From Prorocentrum cordatum (taxonomy: Eukaryota), in the NCBI GenBank assembly GCA_963575745.1, contig CAUYUJ010000001.1:1860001-1924000 (forward strand): 64,000 nt of DNA, read 5' to 3'. Shown here piece by piece: positions 8,911-30,545 of the stretch. Position numbers and translations under genes: made by a program. The notes under the pieces are model-generated. The model did no database searches. It had not been told where the DNA came from and saw nothing but the letters and a program-made list of their open reading frames with translations. How positions within the stretch are numbered: the first letter of the stretch is position 1; every line of letters starts with the position of its first letter.

Positions 8911-8961
8911 CCGTGGCCATTTTGGCTCAAGCCATTTTGGCTGAAGCCGTGTCGGCTCAGG
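8911..8961 (+). other. Tandem dinoflagellate spliced-leader relics (three copies, increasing decay)
   Basis: CCGTGGCCATTTTGGCTCAAG (20/21 to CCGTAGCCATTTTGGCTCAAG), then CCATTTTGGCTGAAG (14/15), then CCGTGTCGGCTCAGG (11/15). Confidence 0.9.
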
Positions 8962-15090: not shown

Positions 15091-17483
15091 AGGAAAAGAA
15101 ACACACAGACACAATTAATCCTCGATTCCCAAGGAACTATGGGAGAATATGGGAAGTGGGGGGGAAGACAGAAACCCAGAAAATATAGGAAAATATGGGG
15201 AATCGTTTTATTTGTGTGTATTTATTTGTGTGTCCTGGGGCCCCTTCCAATGCAACTGTCATCGTCCACGAGCCAGCTCCATACACTAGCGCACGGGTAC
15301 CAGTGCCAGTGAACAGCCGAAGGCGGCCATGCAAGGAATACGACCGTGCAGTAAGCTTTTGCTGCGCGCCGCCGATGGCGGCGGCGCGCTGGGGCCAGCC
15401 CCCTCCAGTGTGTCTCCGCTCGGCGCGGCGGCGCGGAGGCCCAGGGCCAGAAAGACAGTATTCTTCCTCCTCCTCCTCCTCCTTCGCCTCCTCCTCCTCC
15501 TCCTCCTCCACCTCCTCCTCCCTCCTCCTCCTCCTCCTCCTCCTCCTCCTCCTTCTCCTCCTGCCTTTCCTCCTCCTCCCCCTCCTCCCCCTCCTCCCGC
15601 TCCTCCTCCTCCTCCCCCTCTCCCGCGAGGGGCTGGAGCGACCACGCGCAGAGGGCAGATGGCCCTTTTGCATTCTTCCCTTACCATGATTGCTGTTTTC
15701 TTTGCCCCCTGGAGTGTCGAGGCTCATTCCGTCAGCTAGGGTTGAGCTCAATGAGACTTTCAAGACGGCGGCACTATGCTCAGGATCTGGAGCCGATTCG
15801 ACACTATGGTGAAGGATTCGAGCCATCACGCCACCCACCCCCCTCCCAGACATGGTCGTGCGAGGTTTTTGGACGTTTTCAGTTTCTGGGGGCCCTCGCC
15901 AGGCCCCAGGACCGTCAAGAAACCAATCGCGATGAGAAACCGGCCGTGGAAGAGGGTCGGGACGTAAGGGGCCCCGTACTGAAAAACTCGAGACGTTTGG
16001 GGGTGGCCAAGGGGGGGCAATGACCGGGGAGGGTGGATCTCATTGCCCGGAGCATGATATCTCCTCGGATCTCATGGCCCCCTTGTCTCATTTCAGCAAG
16101 TGCCCTGGTCACCCCTTCGTCCGCGCACATGCCTCGGACCATGATGCGCCAACCCCCTCTTGGACGCCTCCCTGACGGACGCCCCCGAGACATCGCATGC
16201 CTGGAGGAGGAGGAGGAGGAGGAGCAGGAGGAGGAGAAGGAGGAGGAGAAGGAGGAAGAGGGAGGAGGAGGAAGAAGAGGGAGGTGAAAGAGGAGGAGGA
16301 TGAGGAGGAGGGAGGAGGGATGAGGGAGGAGGAGGGAGGTGGGAGGAGGGAGGAGGAGGAGGGAGGAGGGAGGAGGGAGGAGGGAGGAGGACGCGTGGAT
16401 TAGCGCCGGGTCCCGCTTCCATGTCCCGCTCCTTTCGGCCGGCACTCGTCCATCCATCCTCCTCCTCCTCCTCCTCCTCCTCCTCCTCCTCCTCCTCCTC
16501 CTCCTCCTCCTCCACCTCCTCCTCCTCCTCCTCCTCCTCCTCCCTCCTCCTCCTCCTCCTCCTCCTCCTCCTCCTCCTCCTCCTCCTCCTCCTCCTCCTC
16601 CTCCTCCTCCTCCTCCCCCTCCTCCTCTTCCTCCGTGCCAGAGCGTGTGTGCCGATCTCTGAGCTCCTACCACCACCTCCCTCGACCGGGGGGAGGGGGA
16701 GGGGGGGGAGGGGGAGGAGGACGAGCAGGCGGGCAATCGGGTCGAACGCCAAGGGGGGGATCGATGGTTGATAGATTCGGACACTGTCGTCGGTTCTCGG
16801 ATGTTCTCTAGCCTCGGGGTGTTCTCCAGCAGCTGCGCCTCGCTGAGAGCGTTCTCGGGGCGCCCAGTCGTCCCGAACGGCCGCCCAAGATCCGAGCAAT
16901 TGTCCAGAAGCCAGACGACGGAGGTTCCTCGGGGCGGACGAAAGGCGGTGATGCATCGACCCCCAATCGCTCCCCAAGAGATCCCCAATCGCCCATTGAT
17001 GGGACCCCCCAAGGGGGTGCCCCTCGAGCGGGGTCTCTCGGGGAAGGGGGGGGTGCGAGTGCAGCTGGTTTGGGCCACGCCGCCGGGCGCTGTCTTCGAT
17101 ACGCGGCCGCCTCCTGCGCCAGCAGGCGCCCGGCTTAGAAACCAGGCGCATGAGCCGATTCGCTGAGAGCCCCCATTTCAGAATCCCCCCTTGTCGTCCG
17201 ACCCGAGAGAGGGGTGGGAGGCGATGGTGTGTAGAAGTAAGCTGTCTGTCGGTGTAGCAGTGATCTGTCTGTCAGTTCTGGGGCCATCCCCTGACATTCG
17301 CCGGTCTGTTTTTTTTTCAATGCGCGGCTCCAGAGGTCCTGGGCCTGCTCTTCGCCCCAGGTCCACTTGTGATGCTCCGGGGGCCCCGGCAACGGGCCCC
17401 AGGGGCCGAACTCGAGGAAACAGCACCCTGGATTGACGAAACCATCTCGTCGGAGATGCGGGTCTCTCTGCCGTCCCCACGAG

Positions 17484-17645
17484 GATCGCGCTCGATCCCA
17501 AGGGCGGCAAGGACGAGCTGGGGCCCAGCAAGGCCGCGCTGGTGGACGTGGCTTCGGAGGAGGAGGCGCGCGCCGCCGAGGCGGCGGTCAGCGAGGCGAC
17601 GTGGGTGGGGGAGTCGCTGCGCGTGCGGGTGTGCCGACCACACTG
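17484..17645 (+). CDS. Exon: second half of RRM1
   Basis: (R)IALDPKGGKDELGPSKAALVDVASEEEARAAEAAVSEATWVGESLRVRVCRPH; acceptor cacgAG|G completes the AG+G Arg codon of exon 8656-8826; donor CACTG|gtaagg. Confidence 0.8.
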
Positions 17646-17889
17646 GTAAGGCTTCGGGCCGCGCACAGATAGCCCCCCCAGGAAATCACGGTGGGCCTCA
17701 GCAGGCCCCCCGAAGATGTAGTCACAGTTGGCCTCACCCGAGCAGCCCGCGGCACTTCAACATCCCAGCGCCGCCTCCAGCGACGCCTCTGAGGCGTTCC
17801 GCGCCCCAGGGTGGGGGTGTTGAGACCGCCCTGGGTTACTCGGAGGGCCTGCTCAGGCCAGCTGGGGCTACTCGGGTGCGCCTGTGGAG

Positions 17890-18019
17890 GCAAGCCGGGA
17901 CTGCCTGGGGGAGCGCCCTGTGCGTAACCCGAAGCCTTGCCAGACCAGACTCTCACGCGCCCCAGAACAAGCTGTATGTGTCTGGCCTCCCGCTCGCCAT
18001 GAAGGAGGCCAACGTCGAG
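17890..18019 (+). CDS. Exon: linker and start of RRM2 (5' boundary uncertain)
   Basis: ...PDSHAPQNKLYVSGLPLAMKEANVE contains a clear RNP2 (LYVSGL); donor GTCGAG|gacact (GA); several phase-2 AG|G acceptors are possible (~17793, ~17857, 17890). Confidence 0.72.
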
Positions 18020-18088
18020 GACACTCCGAGGAGCAACAGCTACCGATACCTCCACCCATTCCTCGTCGGCACGGCTGGATTCTAGGCT

Positions 18089-18297
18089 CTCCCACATGGG
18101 GTCCGAGTAGATGGGGTCGCAGGATCGCGCCGCATCGCCGATTCATAGGCGATGGGGCTCGATGTGGTGCCCAATTCTGTCCACGGCGATGTCGTCGTTG
18201 CATTGCCGACGCCGACGATGCATCGCCGATGCATCGATGATGAATCGGCGATGCGGTGCGACCCTCCAACCCCATCTACACGAACTCCATGCGGGAG
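18089..18297. mobile_element. MITE-like palindromic element, family A, copy 2
   Basis: ctcccacatggggtccgagtagatggggt ... accccatctacacgaactccatgcgggag inverted ends; internal similarity to 2511-2728. Confidence 0.78.
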
Positions 18298-18566
18298 GCC
18301 TCTATCTATGGATTCTCGGCACCACCTCTAAGTGCTGGTCAGAACGCAACCGTGGGAGTGTCCGGGGAGTGGCGGCATGGGTACCTTCCTGTTGCCCCCA
18401 GCCACGAGGTTGAAGCCCCACATTTGGAGGAGGAGGAGGAGGAGGAGGAGGAGGAGGAGGTGGGCTCAAACGGTCTCGCGGTTGGGGGCCGCATTCGGGC
18501 CCGGTCGTGGAGCAAGCGGTTGCGAAGTCAGTGGGGCGTGACCTGGGAGGTGCCCCCCTGTGGTCA

Positions 18567-18835
18567 GGATCGCGTCTGCTTCGCACATGGCTTCGCAGTC
18601 GCAACAGGAGCGAACCTGTTAGATGCCGTATGCGTTCGCACTTGAGCAAGAGTGATCAGTCGCGCATTAATCACGCGCGCACCTTGGGTTCCCATGTGTT
18701 GGATCGCGTCTGCTTCACACATCGCTTCGCAGTCGCAACAGGAGCGAACCTGTTCGATGCCGTATGCGTTCGCACTTGAGCAAGAGTGATCAGTCGCGCA
18801 TTAATCACGCGCGCACCTTGTGTTCCCATGTGTTG
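18567..18835. repeat. Tandem duplication of a 134-bp unit
   Basis: ggatcgcgtctgcttc starts at 18567 and 18701; the copies are near identical. Confidence 0.95.
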
Positions 18836-19339
18836 GAAATTATACTGGGATTAGGGGGGCCTGCTCGCGGTAGTAAGTTCAGTGGCGGCACGCGTGCCAG
18901 TTTCGGGGTGCGCTTGCGTTTTTGCGTTCTGATCCTCCGTACGTCAGGAAAGACACAATGATGCACGCACACGCGGACTAACGTGGGCTTCGAGAGAGAG
19001 AGAGAGAGAGCGCGTTACGCGAGCGCTCGTAGCCTGAGGGCGGCCTCGCGCACGCGGGAGCCTGCTCATCTAGGTGGCTGGGCGCGAATATCTTCTGGGG
19101 GCTCCCTGCTCCCATTCCCCTTATCATGCTTCGTCGTCTCCTCGCTTTTGAACTGAAGGTTGAGGCCATGCCATGGCGCGTCTCAGGCGTATCGCCCCAA
19201 TTCCGATCACCATGCCACTGGGGCAGCCTGAATGGGCTTCCTTCATGGCGCAGTGCTCCTTTCAGCATCGAGTGGCGCGTCTCCAGACCGAAAGACCAGA
19301 TAGACACCGTCGCTCCCTTGTCGGGACGAGAGCCTGCTT

Positions 19340-19520
19340 CGTCGCATCCTCGCTGTTCTCCTTCCTCGTCGTTCTCCTCGTGGTTATCCTCGTTGTTCTC
19401 CTCGTTGTTCTCCTTCCTCGTCGTATCCTCGTCGTATCCTCGTCGTATCCTCGTTGTTCTCCTTCCTCGTCGTATCCTCGTCGTGTCCTCGTCGTATCCT
19501 CGCTGTTCTCCTTCCTGCCT
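19340..19520. repeat. Minisatellite of (tcgtcgtatcc)n and tcgttgttctcc units
   Basis: Directly visible tandem 11-12 bp units. Confidence 0.85.
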
Positions 19521-20230
19521 AGAAAGGGGGGGGCGGGGCTCAGGGGTCGGGCGCGCGGAGGGCCGTGCCACCCAGGGCGTCGGGAGGGGTTGCCTCGCCC
19601 AGAATGTCTGGGGCCCTTCTTGCGGTGCCATGGCATCGCTGTGCTGCATTTTCAAGGGCGCCCTCGAGGGCGCGAAGTTATTCGCGCTTCGCGGTCCTCG
19701 CTCCTCCTCCCCCTCCTCCTCGTCCTCCTCTTCTCCCTTTGGGGGGGCGGCGCGAGGGCGCGAAGTTATTCGCGCTTCGCGCTTCGCGGAGCGCGAAGCG
19801 CGAAGTTGGGAGCCCTTGCTTCTTGCAGTGCCATGGCATCGCTGTGCTGCATTTTGTTCGCAGCGAGGGCCATCGAGGAGCAGATTGGTTCATCTTGCGG
19901 GGAGCAAGCGCACGAAGTCGAAACATGCACGGGGAGTGGACGTCCGAGCGTTGGCGAGGTGCAGTGTCGCAGAAGGGAGCGCCCGAAGCGGGCTGCTCCC
20001 GGTGTGATTTGGTTCTGCAGCCCAGGCACCAGAACTAGGACCCTTGCGGGTTCAGCGATGGCTCCTGGTTTCCGGGCCGGTAGGGGGAGGAGGATGAAGA
20101 GCAGGAGGGGGGCGGGAGGCGGAGGAGGAGGAGGCGGAGGAGGATGCGGAGGAGGAGGAGAGGAGGAGGAGGAGGAGGAGGAGGAGGAGGAGGAGGAGGA
20201 GGAGGAGGAGGGGGGGGGAGGATAGGAGGA

Positions 20231-20248
20231 TAGCCATTTTGGCTCAAG
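20231..20248 (+). other. Spliced-leader relic at the LINE 5' end
   Basis: TAGCCATTTTGGCTCAAG equals the 3' 18 nt of the dinoflagellate SL exactly; it directly follows a (GGA)n tract. Confidence 0.92.
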
Positions 20249-20322
20249 GTGTCAAGAGTGACAAGATGTGACACACATCTTCTGCTCCAGAGAGCAGGTC
20301 CGATACCGTAGCGGCGGCAGTA

Positions 20323-21357
20323 TTGGCTTCTCTTCAGTGCCCTTCTCACCATACCGTTTGCAACGGGGTGGCCGAAATTGCTGCGACGTGCAACGTATGC
20401 GAGAGCAGCATCAGTGCAGGAAGTATTTTTGGAGTTTGCGGAGATGATCTATGCGGATGGCTCATTTGCGTGAACTGCGGATCGAGCACAACAACACGTG
20501 GCTAAGAAACGTCAGGCGGGCTGTGGGGTCCACGTCACCCATTCTCCAGGACATGGTACGTCTTCGAAAGTTGTAGTTCCTGCTCAACTTCCAGGATATC
20601 TTCGTATCCCACAGCTTGCGCAACCCTGCACGCCCATCGACCAGAACACCTTGGATGGTATTTTGGAGCGACTTGCAGAGAAGCAAACAGAGAAGTTTTA
20701 AATAATGATTGCAGAGGTTTGTGAGAAAAGATCTCCCGGGCTTTGAGCCCAACGCAGAAACGCATCGGGGATTTAGAGAAGAAGTTCGCAGACTCCCGCC
20801 GGGCCCATTCACAGCCCCCCGAGCGCTCCAAAGTTTTTTCGCCCACCTGCGTCGACATCAAGAGGTGGTGCGAGTGGGAGGATTGCCGGGAGAAGGGCAT
20901 CGGGAAGTCGACCGCAGAGCAGCGCTACGCAGATCTGATCCAGCAGGTCTCTGAGAGCACCCGGGGCCAGATCGGTTTTATTCAGCTACGTGGTCTCCGG
21001 AACTATTCAGTACGGGTGCCCATTGGTGGAGAGTTCGCTTCCGAAGCGCATGGTACCTGGAAGGATTTCTTCGAGACGGGGAAGTGGGACATGGACGGCA
21101 GGCGCCCGTGCAGCACCCTTGAGCGGCGTCCAGAAATCAACAGGATGTACCAGACCATGGGACATTTGGAGCGCACCAGCCAGGGCTTCACCACCAGAGC
21201 GCTCCCGGCACCTAATTTCTCCGTTTACGTAAACAAGGAAGGACAGCAGGCGACCTGCATCGGCCACGCCACGGAGGACAATGAGATCACTTGGGGCGAG
21301 CCTTGCATGACCGGACAGGACGCAACCGAGGCGGTGAGGGCCGCTCGCCGTCGCTGA
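20323..21357 (+). pseudogene. LINE ORF1 remnant with N-terminal zinc-finger-like motif
   Basis: CPSHH...CNVC...C.DDLCGWLICVNC at 20323-20505, then frameshifted segments 20498-20701 and 20743-21357, all upstream of the APE domain. Confidence 0.6.
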
Positions 21358-21873
21358 GGGCGCCCGGAGAGATTGCATGCAAAGGGCCTGCATTTGGAGA
21401 TTGTTTTGAGTTGGACTTCTTGCCGTAAGCCTATGAGGATTTTTGGTAAATTTACTCGTGCTATCATTGACGATGGCTTGGGCGGGTCAGTTCTGATGCT
21501 CCAGGAGGTCGGGACGTGGAACGGGGGCGCGTGTTCTGACGGCTGCGTCTTGCACACTCGGGGGCCAAGCGGAAACAGCAATGGGAGTGATTGTGGGTTT
21601 TTGTTGCCCCTGTAAATTTCTCAGCTGGTACCCGATGAGTCTCACGGGGAGTATTGAAGTGGCCTGGTCGCGGACTCAACCATCTTATTTAGCGCGCGCA
21701 TGCTTGACCACACCGATCCCGAAGGGCGAGCGGCCACAGTCATAGCAGAGTCCTTACAATTCATCAACAAGCATCGGAATTCACAGTGCATTGACTCCGT
21801 TGTTGTTGGTTTCGACAGCAACGTCACGCTACCCGCCAATATACAGGACGTCACAGGCAACAACGCATTAGTA

Positions 21874-23393
21874 TTGAGCCCGCCGCTTGTGCTACCAGCG
21901 GCGGGGTTCGCCTCTTCCCTTCCCCTAATTTCCCTTTTAATGTTTCCCGATACTTGTCTTCTAATTGTATTATTGTTCCTCTAATTGTCTTGTATTCCCG
22001 ATAATTGTCTTGTATTTCCGATCATCGGCCATATGGTATACACCATACAAGCGACACAAACGCATGGTATCAAGGAGGAAGGAGGAATGAGGAGGCCTCA
22101 GACCCTCCCTCACCAGTAACATGCCCACCCTCTTCCCTGCCCCCTCCTCGCCCTCCCCCTTCCTTCCTCATCGTCCTCTTCACTGCTACTCTACTCGAGA
22201 TGGCTAGGCGGCGGACGTCCCGACACCTCGGGGAGCCTCCCTGCAGGCCTCTGGAGGCCTTCGAGAGGCGCTTCTCCTCCCCCTGCTGGTCTTCGTGCCG
22301 CTCCCTTTTTCCCACCTTTCCTCCTTTTTCCTCCTTGGCATTGCTCGGGCGTGCGCGTTTTTTCCCTCTGCGAGGACCATCGAGGAGCATCCTGGACCAC
22401 GTAGCAAACCAAACACGCGCGAAACCGACACATGCACGGGGAATGGACGTCCGAGCGATAGCAAGCCTCCTGCCCGCGCTGGGCGATAGCAAGCCTCCTG
22501 CCGCGAGGACTGGGCACGGGAATTACCGTCCAGGCACTATAGGGAGAAAGTCCCCGGGAGGTCCCGGGAGGTGGGGCCCCGGGAGGTGGGGGCCTTCCCG
22601 CTAATTCGTCCCTGTGTTTTTACAGGGTTTCATTCTCGGGAAATTATCGGGAAGGGTCCCCGGGAGGTGGGGCCCCGGGAGGTGCCCGGGAGGTCCGTTC
22701 ATTCTGGACGGTTCTCCCCGAACCCCTGGACGGTAATCCCCAGCACTGAAAATCATGCGGGGCGAGGGGTTGGGGAGCTCGGGTTGCTCTCTTGCACTTG
22801 CGCCTCGCCGAGAGCCTTCCAGCTCCTCCTCCTCCTCCTCCTCCTCCTCCTCCTCCTCCTCCTCCTCCTCCTCCTCCTCCTCCTCCTCCTCCTCCTCCCT
22901 CTCGGTGACGTGGTGACGGCCCTCCCTCCTCTCCTCACCCTCCTGCTGCCCCTGTCCCTCCCCCTCTTGCTGCTCCCCTCCTGCTGCTCCCCTCATTGTT
23001 CGGTTCCTTTTCCCCACTTGTTCCCTCCGTCGCTTCCTGGTCGTCGTCCCCTCTCGTCGTCTTCCCCTCACCTGCATCCTTCCTCCGCGTCTCGCTCTTT
23101 CGGCTCGTTCGATGTGTCGTGCCATCACACCGTCACCATAACATCATAGTGTACATTTTATGATCATATCATGTTCTACGTGCAATATTGTAGGCCAACC
23201 ATGTAAGACCGAGTATGGCTGACGCCCATAAGCATTCATTGGAACAGGGGAATTAACGGGAACGGTTAGAGGGGAACCCGGGGAACTAGCGGGAACCAGG
23301 GGGATTAGCGGGAATTATGTTCCAGGAAATTGTTGGGATTATCGACAAGAGGAATAGGCGGAACAGCTCTGGTAGCACAAGCGGCGGGCCCAT
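21874..23393. mobile_element. 1520-bp non-autonomous DNA transposon with 8-bp TSD, inserted in the LINE APE domain
   Basis: TSD CATTAGTA at 21866-21873 and 23394-23401; TIR gcccgccgcttgtgctaccag / ctggtagcacaagcggcgggc is perfect; removal rejoins the APE coding sequence. Confidence 0.92.
22522..22737. mobile_element. Small nested MITE (possible TA target duplication)
   Basis: attaccgtccagg (22522-22534) is the reverse complement of cctggacggtaat (22725-22737); internal cccgggaggt repeats. Confidence 0.65.
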
Positions 23394-23566
23394 CATTAGT
23401 ACCTCTTCAAAGACACGATGGACATGTCGAGGGCCATCTTGGGATGGTTGATTTTTCTTGGAGTTCAATATCTTAACACCTTCGGACTTCCAGTACTTCG
23501 CGAATATTTGTGGGCGTGCGGCTACAAACGTCCACTTGAGAAAATATCACAAATCGATTCCATGGA

Positions 23567-25400
23567 GTGTCTTCGAACGTGCACGGAACAGCACAGCCTA
23601 TGATTTTGGATGCGGCTATTGTCCAGGACAGGGTCGATCACCGCCCCATTTGTGCGCATTCGGCATGGGCTCAGCCTCATTGGGTACCGCCGCACCGGAA
23701 GGATACTCTGACTGGGTGGGTTCGGGCTTCCGAGATGGACGCCCAGGCGTTTCGGATTGCATGCTCAACGTCTTCGCCGCGAACTGCTACTCTTGGAAAC
23801 CTCGAAGCAGTTGACAAGGCTGCCGCTAAGGCCGTCCCCCACGCGACATCCAAGCGAATCCGGTTGGGGGCCGACGGCGCCAAACATGCCGTCCAATTGG
23901 CCAGGCAGGTTGCGCTGGCCGCTGGAAACAACTGCTCTCGTCGTTACACCTCGCGGCGGCGTGCGATACGGGCCTTGGCGACACTGCGGGCCCAAAAGCG
24001 ACTCGGACAAGTGCGGCCTGACCGTGTAGCCCATGGATATGTGCCACAAATCATGGAAGTGGGAGGCCGTCTATCCAGCGATCGCCGGCAATGGCTGGCG
24101 CAGGGACATCAATTCGTCAGCGCACGTTTCAAAGATGTCGCAAACAATGCGAACCGACAACACCACCCGCCTGAAGCTCAGATCTCTGCACGCAAAGATC
24201 TAGCCATCGACAAATTAGAATCTAACGTTCTTCATTTCTGGGACTTCCTGCAATCGCGGGGAATGTCACGTCAGGGGAAAGCGGCGGGGCCCGACGGAGT
24301 ACTTGCCGAAGCTTGGAAAAAAAACATGCCGTTCGATGTATTGGCAGTGGCGTGGAAGACATTCCAGGATCGCGCTTTCTTCCGCACGGGTACGGGGTCC
24401 GAGTGCTGGAAGTTGTTGGACATGCGCGGCGTACCGAAAAGCTGTAATTATAGTAACGACGTTCGAACACTTCCGGTGGATAGCTAAAAGTTCAGTGTTG
24501 CAGAAATGGAATATGCTGACTTCGCGACCTCGGCTGAGAAGCCAATTGCGCATCGCCGGTGTGCACGCGTACGGTTGCAAGAGGAAGTTGCGCACCGGGG
24601 ACATCATCTGCGTGATGCGAGAGTTGTTGTTTCTCTGGGATGCGTGGGTTTCCCATGCATATCGCTGCTCGGGACGCGCGATGCACATTCGACAACATGA
24701 GCCGCGAGAGCATTGCTGAGCCTCTTATTCAAATCGGGGCCTCCAGCGGCACTGCTGCGGCGATCCTTCAGGAACTGGCAGGCAGGCGCGGCAAGTTTGC
24801 CATTCCAGGGGCTGGTGACACTGAGCATTTTGATTTCTGCAAAGGCGGAAAGCAGGGAGGTGTAGAAACACCCGACATTTGCAACGCAATGGTGGAGTGT
24901 TGCTTACAGGATTTGGCGGCGGCTTGGAACTTGCGCGGTTTGGGGCCCCACTGGGGGGCGCATGGGTGAACCGCGCAATTTGGGCAGACAGTGCGTTCTT
25001 GTTCGCGACAGGCCCCGCGGACCTGCAAAGTATGATCCACGAGCTGACCAGTGCGATCTCTACGATTCCTTTGCAATGGGAGCCGATCTCTTTGCAGTGC
25101 ATGGCGCGCGGGGCGGCTGCGGAGGTGCGCATCTCCCTGACAACTTCGACAGTGCCGGAAAGCAGCCTGGAGTATACGCAGCTGGAGAACATGGAGCGCT
25201 TGGGAGTGCTGTCGGACGCTTCGGGGGCGACCGCGCGCAGCGTTGAACGCCGGATGGGCCTTGGTGACCGGGGGTTCTACAAGCGTCGCTCTCTTCTGCA
25301 AGGGCGAGGCGGTGTCCCAGCTCGTCTCGCGGCATGGGCATCTGCGCCCCAGTCTACAGCTTCTTTCCGGAGCGAGTCGCGGCAGCTCACATAGGGCATC
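23567..25400 (+). pseudogene. Reverse transcriptase region of the LINE at 20231-26560 (frameshifted)
   Basis: Non-LTR RT motifs in the expected order across ORFs 23567-24487, 24303-24719, 24640-24969 and 24879-25394. Confidence 0.85.
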
Positions 25401-25979
25401 CTGGAGAAGTTGAAGACGCGGGAACTGTTCAATTTGCGGCGCAAGTTCAAATTTCGCCCGCGCCCAGAGGAGCAACGGGGAGAGTTTATGATCCGTTCAG
25501 CTGGACAAATCCCCCGATGGTTCAAGTTGACAGGTATACCCATGCTGCACCACCGGGTCGTTGCCATGGCGTGCATGAGCGTTTGGCGAGAAGTCGATTT
25601 TCAATTGCCCAATGGTCACGCGCCTCCTCGCTGGGTTCGGGAACACTGGAGCGCTCTTGAGTGGCAGTTTATGGAAGCCTTTGGAGATCGCGCCCGACGG
25701 CGAGAAGGGCTTCGACAATCTTGGGAAGACGTCTTTGTGGGACTATTGGGCGCTGACTGGAGGAGCCGCGGAGCAGCCTACAGAGACATGCCGGCCTGGA
25801 AGAGACACAGACCTCAGTTCGTCAACGCCGCGTGCCGCAAATGGCCCCTCCCGCCCCTGCAGGAGCCGGACGAGCGAGTCCCGCTCAGGTTGGTGGATCA
25901 TCTTCCACAACGTCTTGAAAGTCGGGGGAATCTGGCGCCAATGGCGCACCACCCACACGACAACCAGTGGGGTGAAAGC

Positions 25980-26484
25980 AGCCGGTGCTTAAGTGCAGCG
26001 GTCGATTGCAGACTGTTGGCCGACCTCTTGAACGGCGCGACCGTCGCAGCTACAGAGGAGCACCGACCGTCGTTCATTCGAATGGCCCGTGGCTTGGAGC
26101 AGATGTTGGCGAGAGGATGGACTAGCAGAGTACCTTGGACAGACATGATAGAATGGAGACCTCGTGCATTCAACGCTGAAGCGGACCATTTGGCCAAATA
26201 CTTCGCAATCCTGGAGGCATGTCGACATCGTCGAAGCCAGAGAGCATGCGATGAGAGGTCGTAATTTACGCATTTATAGCGATGGTGGCTACCGTGCAGC
26301 GGAGGACCGGGCATCTGCAGCATGGGTGTTATATGCCATTCGGCGTCAAATGGGCTCGTGGGTGTATACCATGGTAGGTCACGCAAGCATCAGTATATAC
26401 GGGGCGACCACAGCTTTCATTGCTGAGCGCATTGCCTTGGAGTCAGCAGTGGACGCGCTTGTCGATGTTGTTTCAGATTTATAG
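25980..26484 (+). pseudogene. RNase H-like domain with circularly permuted motif order
   Basis: VDCRLLADLLNG and EWRPRAFNAEADHLAK (C-terminal half) precede LRIYSDGGYR..ASAAWVLY and TTAFIAERIALESAV (N-terminal half); one frameshift near 26200; stop at 26482-26484. Confidence 0.78.
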
Positions 26485-28059
26485 TATCTCTCCGGGCCGA
26501 TTGTGATGAACTTGAGGAGGCGCGCCATGGAGTCAAGCCTTGCGGACGGAAGGAAGGAAGAGGAAGAGGAGGTGGAGGAGGATGGGGAGGAGGTGGAGGA
26601 GGTGGAGGTGGAGGAGGAGGAGGAGGAGCAGGACGCTGCCCCGACCTTCGTCGGACGCTGGAACCAGGACCACTGCGGGTTCCGTGACGGTTCCTGGCTT
26701 CCGGGCCGCTGCTCCGACCTCGGTCGGGGAACCCCTCTGTGGCCGAGGCCCGCCGCGTCCCGCAGTGCCCAGGCGTTCCCTGTTTCGGCGCCCTTCACGG
26801 CAGCACGATGACTGTACTCGTAGGATGTGCACGGCTGCGTCTGGTATTTCACTTGGCATAGGTTGTGCGTCTGGTGCTGACGACGGCCGGTGCTGACAAC
26901 TGCCGCGAGAGGTCACTCATCGTGGGGAGTTTTTCGGGTGTGTATTGTTGGTAAATCGCGATGATTGTGCTCGTGGTGAGGGGGTCTGTTCCCGCCAATC
27001 GGTTTTACGCCGGGCGCGCGCGGTAGTTTCATTCGTCGAGCTCTTTCTCTCTCTCTCTCTCTTTCTCTTTCTCTTTCTTAGCGCATGATTAGTGTTTGTC
27101 CTTCCCGTCCGGCGCACAATGTTTTTCCAATGGAACTGCTCTCCCCGTGGCTCGCACTTGTTGGTTTCTGAATTTTCAGCGAAGGCTACGATGTTCGCCC
27201 CTGGATTGCCACAGCAGCGGCCCTACCTGATACTTCATCGCCGTATAAGAAGAAATCGCGTTTTCGCTTGAGACTTCGTGGCGGTTTTCTCGGGACTCGC
27301 GCTCTCTCAGGACCGTGCTCTCGCACGAGACGTTTTCAGAGTTTACTCTGGAATCGTGCTCTCGCCAGAGGATTCCCCATCGTTTGCGAAGTTCGCCTCG
27401 ATGCCCCGCCCGCCCGACCCGCCCGTCAGGGTCCGCCCGCCCGCCCGACCCGCCTGGTAGGGGGTCCGCCCGCCCGACCTGCTCGTCGGGGTTCGCGCGC
27501 CCCGCCCGCGAGGTGGTGAGGTCCGCCCCTTCGCTTGCCCGGAAGCTTGCGCGCTCGCTTTCGTGCCCCGCCCGGCGGACCCGCCCGTCAGGGTCCGCCC
27601 GCCTGACTCGCCCTGTGGGTCCGCCCGTCCGACCCGCAACTTGGGGTCCTCCTGTTAAACCAAGTGTCTCGTCCTCAATAATCATATATCCCTCTTGCCC
27701 CCTTCCCTTCTCGTGCCCTCCTCCCTTCCTATTTCTTGTTTTTTTTCTTTCTTTTTCTCTCTCTCTCTCTCTCTCTCTTTTCCACTCTCCTAATTCAGGG
27801 GCCGTTCCAACTACACGTGGCAGGGAAAGAAAGCATACACCCCGAATGGGGTACCATCGAAGACGACGAGGGCGGGTAGCGAGGATTTGGGGTACACATG
27901 TTGGGTGATTCGCAAGTAACGAAGAACGAACAGTCGTATCTTGATTGTCGTTTTTTTAAAGCTGGGGCAGGGGGCGTGTGTATCACTGTGCTCTGGTTCG
28001 CTCTGCTGGCAGGAGGAGGTTCGGATGAGAAATGCAGGGATCGCCATGGTGTTTGCGAG

Positions 28060-28352
28060 ACAACGGCGACCTCGACCGCGACGTGGCGATGGAGACGACG
28101 CCGACCGCAACGACGGCGGACGGCGACGATGTGGGACGACACAGTGGCCACCGCGATGACGGCAGCGACGACGGCGAAGACGGCGACAAGTGCGACAACG
28201 ATGGGGACGGCGACGACGACGGCAGGGACAACGGTGACGGCGACCTCGACGACGTCGGCCATGGCGATGGCGAAGACGGTTACGAGTGCGACCCCGTCGA
28301 CGGCGACGACTGCAACGGCGGCCTCGACGACAGTGGTGACGGCGACGACGAG
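28060..28352. repeat. Degenerate (GAC/GGC)n low-complexity tract, flanked by gtcagggtccgcccgc repeats (27405-27640, 28425-28595)
   Basis: Directly visible. Confidence 0.8.
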
Positions 28353-28797
28353 GTGGTGCGCCTTGCGTAGCGCTCTCGCGAGAACCTTCTCGCGATTTGC
28401 TTGGGAATAGTGCGTTGATGCCCCTCCCGCCCGTCCCGCCCGTCAGGGTCCGCCCGCCCAACCCGCCCGTCTGGGGGTCCACCCGCCCGACCCTGCTTGG
28501 AAGCATGCCCACCAGCTCCGGCGCCCCGCCCAGTCCGCCCGTCAGGGTCCACTTAGGCGACTCGCGCGTAGGGCCGCCCGCAAGACCCGCCCGTCTCGCT
28601 TTATTGGGCCTGCAAGGGCACATGCGAATTGGTGGGGCGGTACGTGATGGCGAGGATGAGCAGGGCAGGACCGAGTGGGCGCAGCGGGCGGCTTTGCGCA
28701 GACATCGAGGCGAGCAGGTGGTGAGGTCGGCGGGCGTCAATGTTGCCATTGCCAGAGCTGTTGCGAGCGGTGTCAGGGGGAATTGCCAGAACCCGAG

Positions 28798-28982
28798 GAG
28801 CTCTTCTCGCAGCATGGCAGTGTGAGCCAGGTGGCGATACTGCCCACGAAGGGCTGGGGACAGTCGGCGCTGGTGACGCTGGCCGACGTGGAAGAGGCTT
28901 CTCTTACCGCGGGCCTGTTCGACCAGCACATTGTGGAGGGCCACCAGGTGCCCCTTACCGTCCGGCTCCAGGGAAGCAACAG
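28798..28982 (+). CDS. Exon: remainder of RRM2 (3' end uncertain; could run to the stop at 29040)
   Basis: ELFSQHGSVSQVAILPTKGWGQSALVTLADVEEASLTAGLFDQHIVEGHQVPLTVRLQGSN; acceptor cccgAG|GAG joins in phase 0 to ...MKEANVE; possible donor AACAG|gttcac. Confidence 0.8.
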
Positions 28983-29382
28983 GTTCACCGACACCAGTTT
29001 GGGCCAGACCCGTCTCGGGCTCAGGACTGCTATGGTATGAAGCAGTTTCCCGCGGCATAGCCAATGGTCCCGCGTGTCTGTTCATCATGCTTGATCCAAG
29101 GATGGCGGGATTTGCCCCATCTGGTGTCGGTGATTCATTGTCGTATTCGTAGGGTGGAAGGGCACAATTCCTGAATACTTCGCATTGGGGGGCGCGTTGC
29201 CGTGAGATCCTTCGGGGCTTTGACCCGTGCCTATTTCCCAACCGTCCTGTGGTGTTGGGTTTTCGTTTTGAAGAGACGGTCCCCGCGTCCCTCCTCTCCT
29301 CTCCTCTCCTCTCCTCTTCACCTCTCCTCCTCCTCTCCTCCCCCTCCTCCTTCCCCCTCCTCTCTCCTCTCGTCACCCTATC

Positions 29383-30545
29383 ACTTTGGCACACCCCTCA
29401 CACGTTTCGTGGCCCCATAGGGAGCTCCACCTAAGGTCCCAGTGGCGCAGTTCGCATGGCGGCGCCGCCCCTTTTTGGCGCACCCCTCACACGCTTCGTG
29501 GCCCCATAGGGAGCTCCACTTAAGGTCCCAGCGGCGCAGTTCGCATGGCGGCGCCGTCCCACTTTGGCGCACCCCTCACACGCTTTGTGGCCCCATATGG
29601 GGGCTCCATCTAAGGTCCCAGCGGCGCAGTTCGCATGGCGGCGCCGCCCCTTTTTGGCGCACCCCTCACACGCTTCGTGGCCCCATAGGGAGCTCCACTT
29701 AAGGTCCCAGTGGTGCAGTTCGTATGGCGGCGCCGTCCCACTTTGGCGCACCCCTCACACGCTTTGTGGCCCCATATGGGGGCTCCATCTAAGGTCCCAG
29801 CGGCGCAGTTCGCATGGCGGCGCCGCCCTGTTTGGCGCACACACACACACACACACACCTCACACGTGTCGTGGCCCCATAAGGAGCTCCACCTACGGTT
29901 CAAGCGGTGCAGTTCGCATAGCGGCGCCGCCCCATTTTGGCAAACCCTTCACACGTTTCGTGTCAGAAGCCGGGCAAGGGCTGCTAAATCCGTGGCTGCT
30001 AAAATCGACCTCCGGGAAGTTGTCTTCGTCCTTCCGGGAAGAAGCCCGTTGACAGTTTCGCGTGCCGTGCCTCATTCCGGGAAGTTGTTTTTTCCTTCCG
30101 GGAGGGCCGTTTTAGCAGCCGCGGTTTTAGCAGCCCTCGCCCAGCTTCCGATCGTGGCCCCATAGGGGGCTGCATCTAAGGTTCCAGTGGCGCGGTTGGC
30201 ATGGCGGCGCCGCCCCGTTTTGGCACACCCCTCGCACGTTTCGTTGCCCCTATCGGGAGCTCCTCCTAAGGGCCCCATGGCGCAGTTCGCATGGCGGCGC
30301 CGCCCCATTGTGGCACACCCCTCACACGCTTCGTGGCCCCATAGGGAGTCCCACCTAAGGTCCCAGTGGCGAACTGCGCATGGCGGCGCCGCCCCATGTT
30401 GCAAACCCCTCACACGTTTTCGGGGGCCCACAGGGAGCTCCACCTAATGGCCCCATGGCGCACTTCGCATGGCGACGCCGCCCCATTTTGGCACACCACT
30501 CACACGTTTCGTGGCCCCATAGAGAGTCCCACCTAAGGTCCCACT
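29383..30545. repeat. 89-90 bp tandem satellite with a local 179-bp dimeric higher-order unit
   Basis: Unit starts (tttggc) at 29385, 29474, 29563, 29653, 29742 and 29831; alternate units share diagnostic variants. Confidence 0.95.
29963..30151. mobile_element. 189-bp MITE with ~43-bp TIRs and 5-bp TSD, inserted in the satellite
   Basis: TSD TCGTG at 29958-29962 and 30152-30156; tcagaagccgggcaagggctgctaaa / tttagcagccctcgcccagcttccga; removal restores the satellite unit. Confidence 0.9.

Follow-up and report, generated by a model that had tools for sequence, protein, structure and literature searches.

A probable natural circular permutant of archaeal-like RNase H at the C-terminus of a decayed LINE-like reverse transcriptase in Prorocentrum cordatum

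Retroelement RNases H and the locus in Prorocentrum cordatum

Many clades of retroelements without long terminal repeats (non-LTR elements) carry an RNase H, which in all of them is described with its parts in normal order, and the accessible part of one account lists among them the archaeal-like RNase H (aRNH) domains of plant and oomycete L1 and of Utopia (PMC4640811); repeated acquisitions of RNase H are described in the accessible part of another (PMC5348765). The subject of the present analysis is a domain encoded at positions 25944-26484 of a 64,000-nucleotide stretch of Prorocentrum cordatum contig CAUYUJ010000001.1 (positions 1,860,001 to 1,924,000; assembly GCA_963575745.1), which has a GC content of 0.60 and is referred to in its full length as the window; all features are numbered from its first nucleotide, and the parts of the element at 20082-20248 and 24053-26633 lie on its forward (+) strand. 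This segment is very probably the C-terminal domain of a decayed non-LTR, LINE-like (long interspersed nuclear element) reverse transcriptase (RT) open reading frame (ORF), folded as a type 1, archaeal-like (RVT_3) RNase H that is naturally circularly permuted, as is the norm of its family. The aRNH domains of plant and oomycete L1 and of Utopia are likewise Arg-type RNases H carried on a non-LTR RT protein; their active-site residues, so far as the available text of the source sets them out, follow the order D-E-D-R-D, whereas the family described here reads D-R-D-D-E and its chain ends after helix αA.

The canonical type 1 RNase H runs β1-β2-β3-αA-β4-αB-αD-β5-αE and presents its acidic residues in the order D1, E, D2 and D3; the family does not follow this order and is accordingly classed as a permuted variant and not as a canonical member. 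The solved type 1 enzymes that gave the best profile matches, namely 3hst, 3u3g, 4h8k, 4e19 and the Sulfolobus tokodaii RNase HI structures 2ehg and 3aly (E-values from 1e-5 to 0.27), also match each half structurally, but they are standalone or N-terminal enzymes of normal topology and align to the family in two swapped pieces. Pfam likewise recognizes only one half of a family member at once, often below its cut-off. Natural permutants are familiar from other folds; circularly permuted GTPases, swaposins and permuted DNA methyltransferases represent the same kind of event, in which fold and functional residues are retained and the termini are moved. A duplication after which both ends are lost is the usual explanation, and to our knowledge none of these forms part of a retroelement polyprotein.

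Within the RNase H-like domains, the CIRPIN screen of cluster representatives of the AlphaFold database (2025-26) reports one circularly permuted 'ribonuclease H-like domains' pair (PMC13552848; preprint PMC12667903), a natural permutation as in the present family; the accessible portion of its text identifies neither the proteins nor their organisms and mentions no catalytic residues or retroelement context, and overlap with the family described here is possible. A survey of the RNase H-like superfamily (PMC3985635) holds no word with 'permut', and elsewhere the term 'permuted' is used in other senses (PMC10830420, PMC13524379, PMC2628886, PMC3578095). The original prediction, made from the letters of the window alone, took such an RNase H not to be known from retroelements; a literature search, with most subscription journals and Repbase Reports outside its scope, found no description of one, and to this extent the claim stands, qualified by the unnamed CIRPIN pair. 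The permuted RNase H is well supported as a variant of a known enzyme, not as a new kind of system.

The permuted order in the window and in its relatives

The domain of the window copy is split between two reading frames. In frame 0, ORF 25395-26264 reads ...CLSAAVDCRLLADLLNG..., bearing the D2 Asp codon at 26004-26006, and then ...IEWRPRAFNAEADHLAK, bearing the D3 Asp codon at 26184-26186; its end, followed down to the stop, may also be written ...CLSAAVDCRLLADLLNG...IEWRPRAFNAEADHLAKYFAILEAC.... In frame 1, the stretch 26152-26484 reads ...LRIYSDGGYR..ASAAWVLY, with the D1 Asp codon at 26281-26283, and then ...TAFIAERIALESAVDAL, with the Glu codon at 26425-26427 and the TAG stop codon at 26482-26484, so that the whole passage from D1 to the chain end is ...MRGRNLRIYSDGGYR..ASAAWVLY...TAFIAERIALESAVDALVDVVSDL. 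The first half (25944-26198, frame 0) corresponds to β4, αB, αD, β5 and αE and holds D2 (26004), the Arg (26163) and D3 (26184); a linker from the old C-terminus at αE to the old N-terminus at β1 (26200-26262) appears as a short strand and a helix in models; and the second half (26263-26481, frame 1) corresponds to β1, β2, β3 and αA and holds D1 (26281) and E (26425). All five residues D-R-D-D-E are retained in the conceptual read-through of the window copy (P0001), a second version of which (P0152) has the shift set at 26196.

For each half a hidden Markov model (HMM) was made from the family members, the window's own row among them, and run over both strands of 24800-27400; each model found one site only, scoring 94.0 bits for the D2-D3 half and 82.4 bits for the D1-E half, while the other pieces of this interval reached at most 5.3 bits. 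Because each model matches a single place at such a score, the D2-D3-D1-E pattern in the window is not a product of chance. A second copy of the domain stretch was not found within the 64-kb window by blastn or tblastn.

The switch between frames lies at 26196-26200. By tblastn of 12 relatives, frame 0 ends at 26198 and frame 1 begins at 26197, and a contig from one public run (X2), which covers 26149-26290, carries 11 extra bases, ACGTTGCAATG, behind 26196. These bases restore ...ADHLANVAMNTSQSW, in agreement both with the relative P0003, which reads ...ADHLANSAMNSAQSW there, and with the family consensus AD.L.N.AMD, which is cut short in the window copy; the frameshift is thus, by this comparison, an 11-bp deletion at 26196/26197. 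From a second run (X1), one contig shows 37 differences from the window across 26197-26517, whereas two further runs (X3 and X4) yielded no contig here. Contigs of the public runs were placed at a likeness of at least 80%, and those from the two runs, 88-93% alike to the window, span the junction from D3 to D1 and represent other, diverged copies. Further frame changes are revealed in the RT part by tblastn of relatives, and the window copy is a pseudogene. Frame 1 has an ATG at 26251, and the reading frame that it opens overlaps the frame-0 stop (26262-26264), which gives the D1-E half the appearance of a separate small ORF; this was rejected as a genuine start, and the apparent ORF is a by-product of the 11-bp deletion, since intact relatives read straight through.

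The order seen in this copy recurs throughout its relatives. An exhaustive phmmer search of 1.84 billion cluster representatives with the read-through as query returned 328 proteins at E≤1e-3, 57 of them at E≤1e-10 and 2 at E≤1e-30. The details of the family given here are taken from the best 150 of the 328 matches, and alignment A1 comprises the window and 149 relatives. A single collinear stretch, mostly spanning query residues ~3-176, accounts for 149 of the 150 best matches, and the identity of the relatives to the window copy ranges from 22 to 73%. Within A1, D2 is conserved in 132 of 135 rows, the Arg in 150 of 150, D3 in 149 of 150, D1 in 142 of 145 and E in 126 of 133; among the 117 relatives having a residue at all four acidic columns, 107 display D-D-D-E; the 32 relatives of A1 outside these 117 are fragments. 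The spacing from D3 to D1 has a median of 35 residues (144 relatives), and the chain continues past the Glu for a median of 19.5 residues (range 4-83), with 30 or fewer in 115 of 132 relatives; a normal RNase H would need ~80 further residues at this point, as estimated from the length of the RVT_3 profile.

The regions on either side of the domain lack the missing halves in their usual places. The D2-D3 half-HMM found no match in the 33 relatives with tails of at least 25 residues (best E 0.22), nor did the D1-E half-HMM in the 75 with heads of at least 40 residues (best E 0.096), and comparison by hhalign of the 160 residues upstream in 32 long members with the D1-E half gave a probability of 0.07%. 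Among the relatives examined, none thus had the halves in normal order, a second domain in tandem or a relic of a lost half. The D2-D3-D1-E order is therefore, judging from these alignments, the norm of a large and diverse family and is not confined to this copy. Much of what the original prediction had drawn from the single copy is borne out by these results: the residue positions and their order, with all four acidic residues kept; one frameshift near 26200 within the domain, now seen as a deletion relative to the X2 contig and the family; nothing beyond the E helix, the stop of the window copy lying 18 residues after the Glu; no D1-E half upstream of D2; and, as a supported interpretation, a LINE lineage encoding a natural circular permutant. 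A family with normal order or tandem domains, which it had named as an outcome that would speak against it, was not seen in the 33 tails and 75 heads.

The closest relative over the junction is P0003, 73% identical to the window read-through, which carries the source label 'merc'; we take this to be a catalogue derived from marine eukaryote transcript assemblies, and if so, this close relative is transcribed. Other searches were uninformative: word-index protein searches returned no match beyond the query, metagenome contigs, scanned with one protein and with a degenerate motif, yielded no relative, and tblastn of a phage collection with P0010, made in search of normal-order RNases H, gave one irrelevant match.

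Homology, predicted fold and alternative readings

The relationship of the two halves to RNase H emerges from profile searches. Against the sequences of the PDB, the A1 profile found 3hst_B, the RNase H domain of Rv2228c, at E=1e-5, with profile positions 75-160 aligned to chain residues 61-136 and positions 179-207 to chain residues 4-31. Two stretches in swapped order were likewise obtained with 3u3g_D, 4h8k_A (LC11-RNase H1) and 4e19_A (Halobacterium RNase H1), the later stretch extending to the Glu helix in 4h8k_A, and the conserved D, E and R columns align with the corresponding residues of 3hst_B, 3u3g_D and 4h8k_A. The Pfam profile RVT_3 (PF13456) matches 53 of the 150 members at E≤0.01 (best 5e-10), with scores above its 21.6-bit cut-off for P0032 (34.4), P0022 (31.3), P0010 (27.8) and P0017 (27.1). 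In a scan of 53 members taken singly, 19 gave an RVT_3 match; an early segment aligned with profile positions ~52-123 in 15 of them, and in 4 of the 19 a late segment aligned within positions 2-61, in the N-terminal half, namely residues 97-159 with 2-61 in P0017 (27.1 bits), 109-170 with 2-55 in P0037, 772-820 with 3-49 in P0048 and 162-193 with 28-57 in P0031. The motif W.PR..N..AD is kept in the family, with an invariant Arg seven residues before D3, and an Arg where the D-E-D-H-D pattern has His is given as a mark of archaeal-like RNases H in the accessible text of one source (PMC4640811). As a lead only, a protein language model places P0012 next to RVT_3 and RNase_H clusters (score 0.91). 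Within the reach of profile comparison, these alignments show both halves to be homologous to archaeal-like (RVT_3) type 1 RNase H, in swapped order.

Structure prediction arranges the same halves into one fold. The AlphaFold2 model of the relative P0012, computed from 150 sequences, has a predicted local distance difference test score (pLDDT) of 97.5 and a predicted template modelling score (pTM) of 0.92, and its strands (E) and helices (H) follow as E26-31, H34-40, H49-67, E80-82, H89-101, E105-107, H110-118, E122-131, E137-149, E152-165 and H172-191, which correspond to β4, αB, αD, β5, αE, the linker strand and helix, β1, β2, β3 and αA. In this model, D32 lies just past β4, D92 early in αE, D128 in β1 and E176 early in αA, and the canonical RNase H likewise places D2, D3, D1 and E on β4, αE, β1 and αA. 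The model of the window read-through P0152 (pLDDT 96.2, pTM 0.91) has the same order of elements with a shorter αE helix, and its linker is formed by E90-93 and H95-103. In VIA-align comparisons, RNases H match only half of a model at once and in swapped register: the first half aligns to the C-terminal part of 3u3g_D and 3aly_B, the second half to the N-terminal part of RNases H (2lsn, chain residues 1-76; 2qk9_A, 134-202), and residues 105-179 of the window model align to 4e19_A 67-174 with 31% identity. The two halves are confidently predicted to form one compact domain. Failure of the halves to match RNase H profiles or to fold together, the further outcomes named by the original prediction as contrary to it, was thus not encountered, as both match in swapped order and the models display one confident domain.

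Several results weigh against an assignment to a permuted RNase H. On its own, P0001 retrieves from Pfam only RVT_3, at E=0.048 and 14.0 bits (cut-off 21.6), through an alignment of residues 66-86, the D3 motif within the first half (25944-26198), with profile positions 102-122; the D1-E half of the window copy alone has no RNase H match in Pfam; and phmmer of P0001 against the PDB returns only noise, such as streptavidin at E 0.6. A Foldseek search of the PDB with the model found no RNase H, its top match being PelC with a template modelling (TM) score of 0.31. Taken one by one, the D1 stretches that the profile matched among PDB sequences are weak (independent E-values from 1.7 to 320), and the run contigs that bear on the junction have a depth of only 2-4, so that single differences in them may be errors. 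Pfam also gave no match for either separate half of the window copy or for its RT fragments. Judged by the predicted models, the outcome of searches bound to chain order is what a permutation would lead one to expect.

If the assignment to a permuted RNase H is correct, the chain would enter the fold at β4 with D2, continue through αB, αD, β5 and αE with the Arg and D3, and cross by a linker of ~15-25 residues with an extra helix to β1 with D1, β2, β3 and αA with the Glu, where it would stop; the new termini would thus lie in the native αA/β4 loop and the native termini would be joined. The D-R-D-D-E residues may form the usual two-metal site, and because these catalytic-type residues are near-invariant against a drifting background, an active two-metal RNase H would be expected. 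Once the first strand had been synthesized in target-primed reverse transcription, such a domain would clear the element RNA from its hybrid with the cDNA, allowing the second strand to be made. The permutation could have originated by duplication of the domain and subsequent loss of both outer halves; no relic half or tandem intermediate was found among the 75 heads and 33 tails, where relics may have decayed.

Among the alternatives, the one that survives best is that the domain descends from RNase H and is permuted but no longer cuts, serving instead as a structural or nucleic-acid-binding module in the manner of the retroviral connection domain, one of the non-catalytic RNase H-like folds known beside RTs. 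Several VIA-align rows are RT chains of retroelements (8r0s_A, 4ol8_A and others) that match the second half of the model and may bear on this reading. Inactive derivatives of RNase H usually lose their catalytic residues, whereas here the five catalytic-type residues persist in 95-100% of rows against a background that has diverged to 22-40% identity, and loss of activity is accordingly considered unlikely. Convergence at the level of motifs on some other α/β fold, for instance one like SPOUT or RlmH, is regarded as very improbable beside the swapped profile alignments given above. Lastly, a local rearrangement, partial tandem duplication or assembly error in one copy of a family with a normal RNase H would sit well with a pseudogene bearing several frame changes and with a D2-like word (...IVSLRADCDELEEARHG) in frame 0 at ~26478-26530, past the stop and out of the preceding frame, but is scarcely credible given the collinearity of the relatives, the absence of either half from the tails and heads, the diverged contigs of two runs that span the junction, the lack of duplication at the DNA level, the 0.0 bits of the D2-like word against the D2-D3 HMM, by which it was rejected as the start of a second domain and put down to chance, and identities of 22-73%, because of which a single rearranged master copy is also implausible.

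A permuted RNase H, probably active, remains the best explanation of the domain. Beyond the single locus, we are inclined to think that a catalytically active, permuted archaeal-type RNase H, tethered to the RT through β4 and not through β1, is at work in an old and large clade of non-LTR elements of dinoflagellates or, more widely, of marine protists.

The surrounding element and the possible meaning of a permuted tether

Upstream of the domain, a decayed RT region and the stretch joining it to the RNase H extend over 24053-25943 in three frames, as traced by tblastn of relatives (P0048 residues 1-145 in frame 2, P0036 residues 11-108 in frame 1 and P0048 residues 105-747 in frame 0). The window is collinear with P0048 (E 5e-74) and P0036 (2e-72), and in both of these long relatives Pfam places RVT_1 upstream of the domain (E=1.6e-9 and E=0.0023, respectively); P0048 found nothing at E≤0.1 among the PDB sequences. 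No LTRs are present, and the only flanking direct repeats in 17000-30000 are (AGG)n-like low-complexity runs. Still further upstream, ORFs at 21358-21984 contain words resembling those of an apurinic (APE-like) endonuclease by eye (…LQEV…, …GFDSN…), and had no Pfam, relevant PDB or Atlas match. A low-complexity block at 22000-23500, including (CTC)25 at 22823-22898, parts these endonuclease-like ORFs from the RT, and a 50-nt stretch within it (22416-22465) is 84% identical to 19909-19958, just upstream of the element; the block may be a nested insertion of another repeat.

The stop codon is followed by a short 3' untranslated stretch and then an (AGGAGG)n tandem repeat at 26555-26633 (together 26485-26633). 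A similar (AGG)n microsatellite lies on the 5' side at 20082-20230 (Tandem Repeats Finder, period 3, 51 copies), such that repeats of this type are found on both sides of an element of ~6.3 kb that has no poly(A); the element may have inserted into a microsatellite or may prefer such targets. A relic at 20228-20248, where the 5' end of the element is likely to lie, resembles the dinoflagellate spliced leader (DinoSL), with 3 mismatches to a 21-nt motif for which none of 100 shuffles gave any match. Because this relic sits exactly at the likely 5' end, it suggests that the transcript of the element was trans-spliced before being copied back into DNA. A second spliced-leader-like relic, with 1 mismatch to the same motif, is found at 8911-8931. 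Spliced-leader relics mark retroposed transcripts in dinoflagellate genomes according to the available portions of two reports (PMC6050394, PMC5585692), and their presence here fits a dinoflagellate genome. Elsewhere in the window, an array of ~89-nt units at 29331-29971, in which a 179-nt reference recurs six times with 63-97% identity, encodes a repeated peptide in one frame, and 100 N at 57499-57598 represent an assembly gap.

As a textbook fold, RNase H serves as a model of protein folding and is also a drug target, and its gain, duplication and decay are central to the evolution of retroelements. If the reading of the domain as an active, permuted RNase H is true, the family would provide a natural circular permutant of the catalytic domain of RNase H such as had not been characterised before in any retroelement, and a permutant that is family-wide and keeps its catalytic residues would mean that new termini in the αA/β4 loop, together with a joined N- and C-terminus, are compatible with the fold. 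The changed tether would then entail a different geometry of RT-RNase H coupling in target-primed reverse transcription, making these elements a natural test case for the importance of that tether. The family also exposes a blind spot of annotation, as Pfam often leaves the half-domain below its cut-off and Foldseek returns nothing, and such elements would be called RNase H-less or fragment-bearing. Once recognized, the permuted order would offer a diagnostic character for classing the abundant LINE-like repeats of dinoflagellate genomes.
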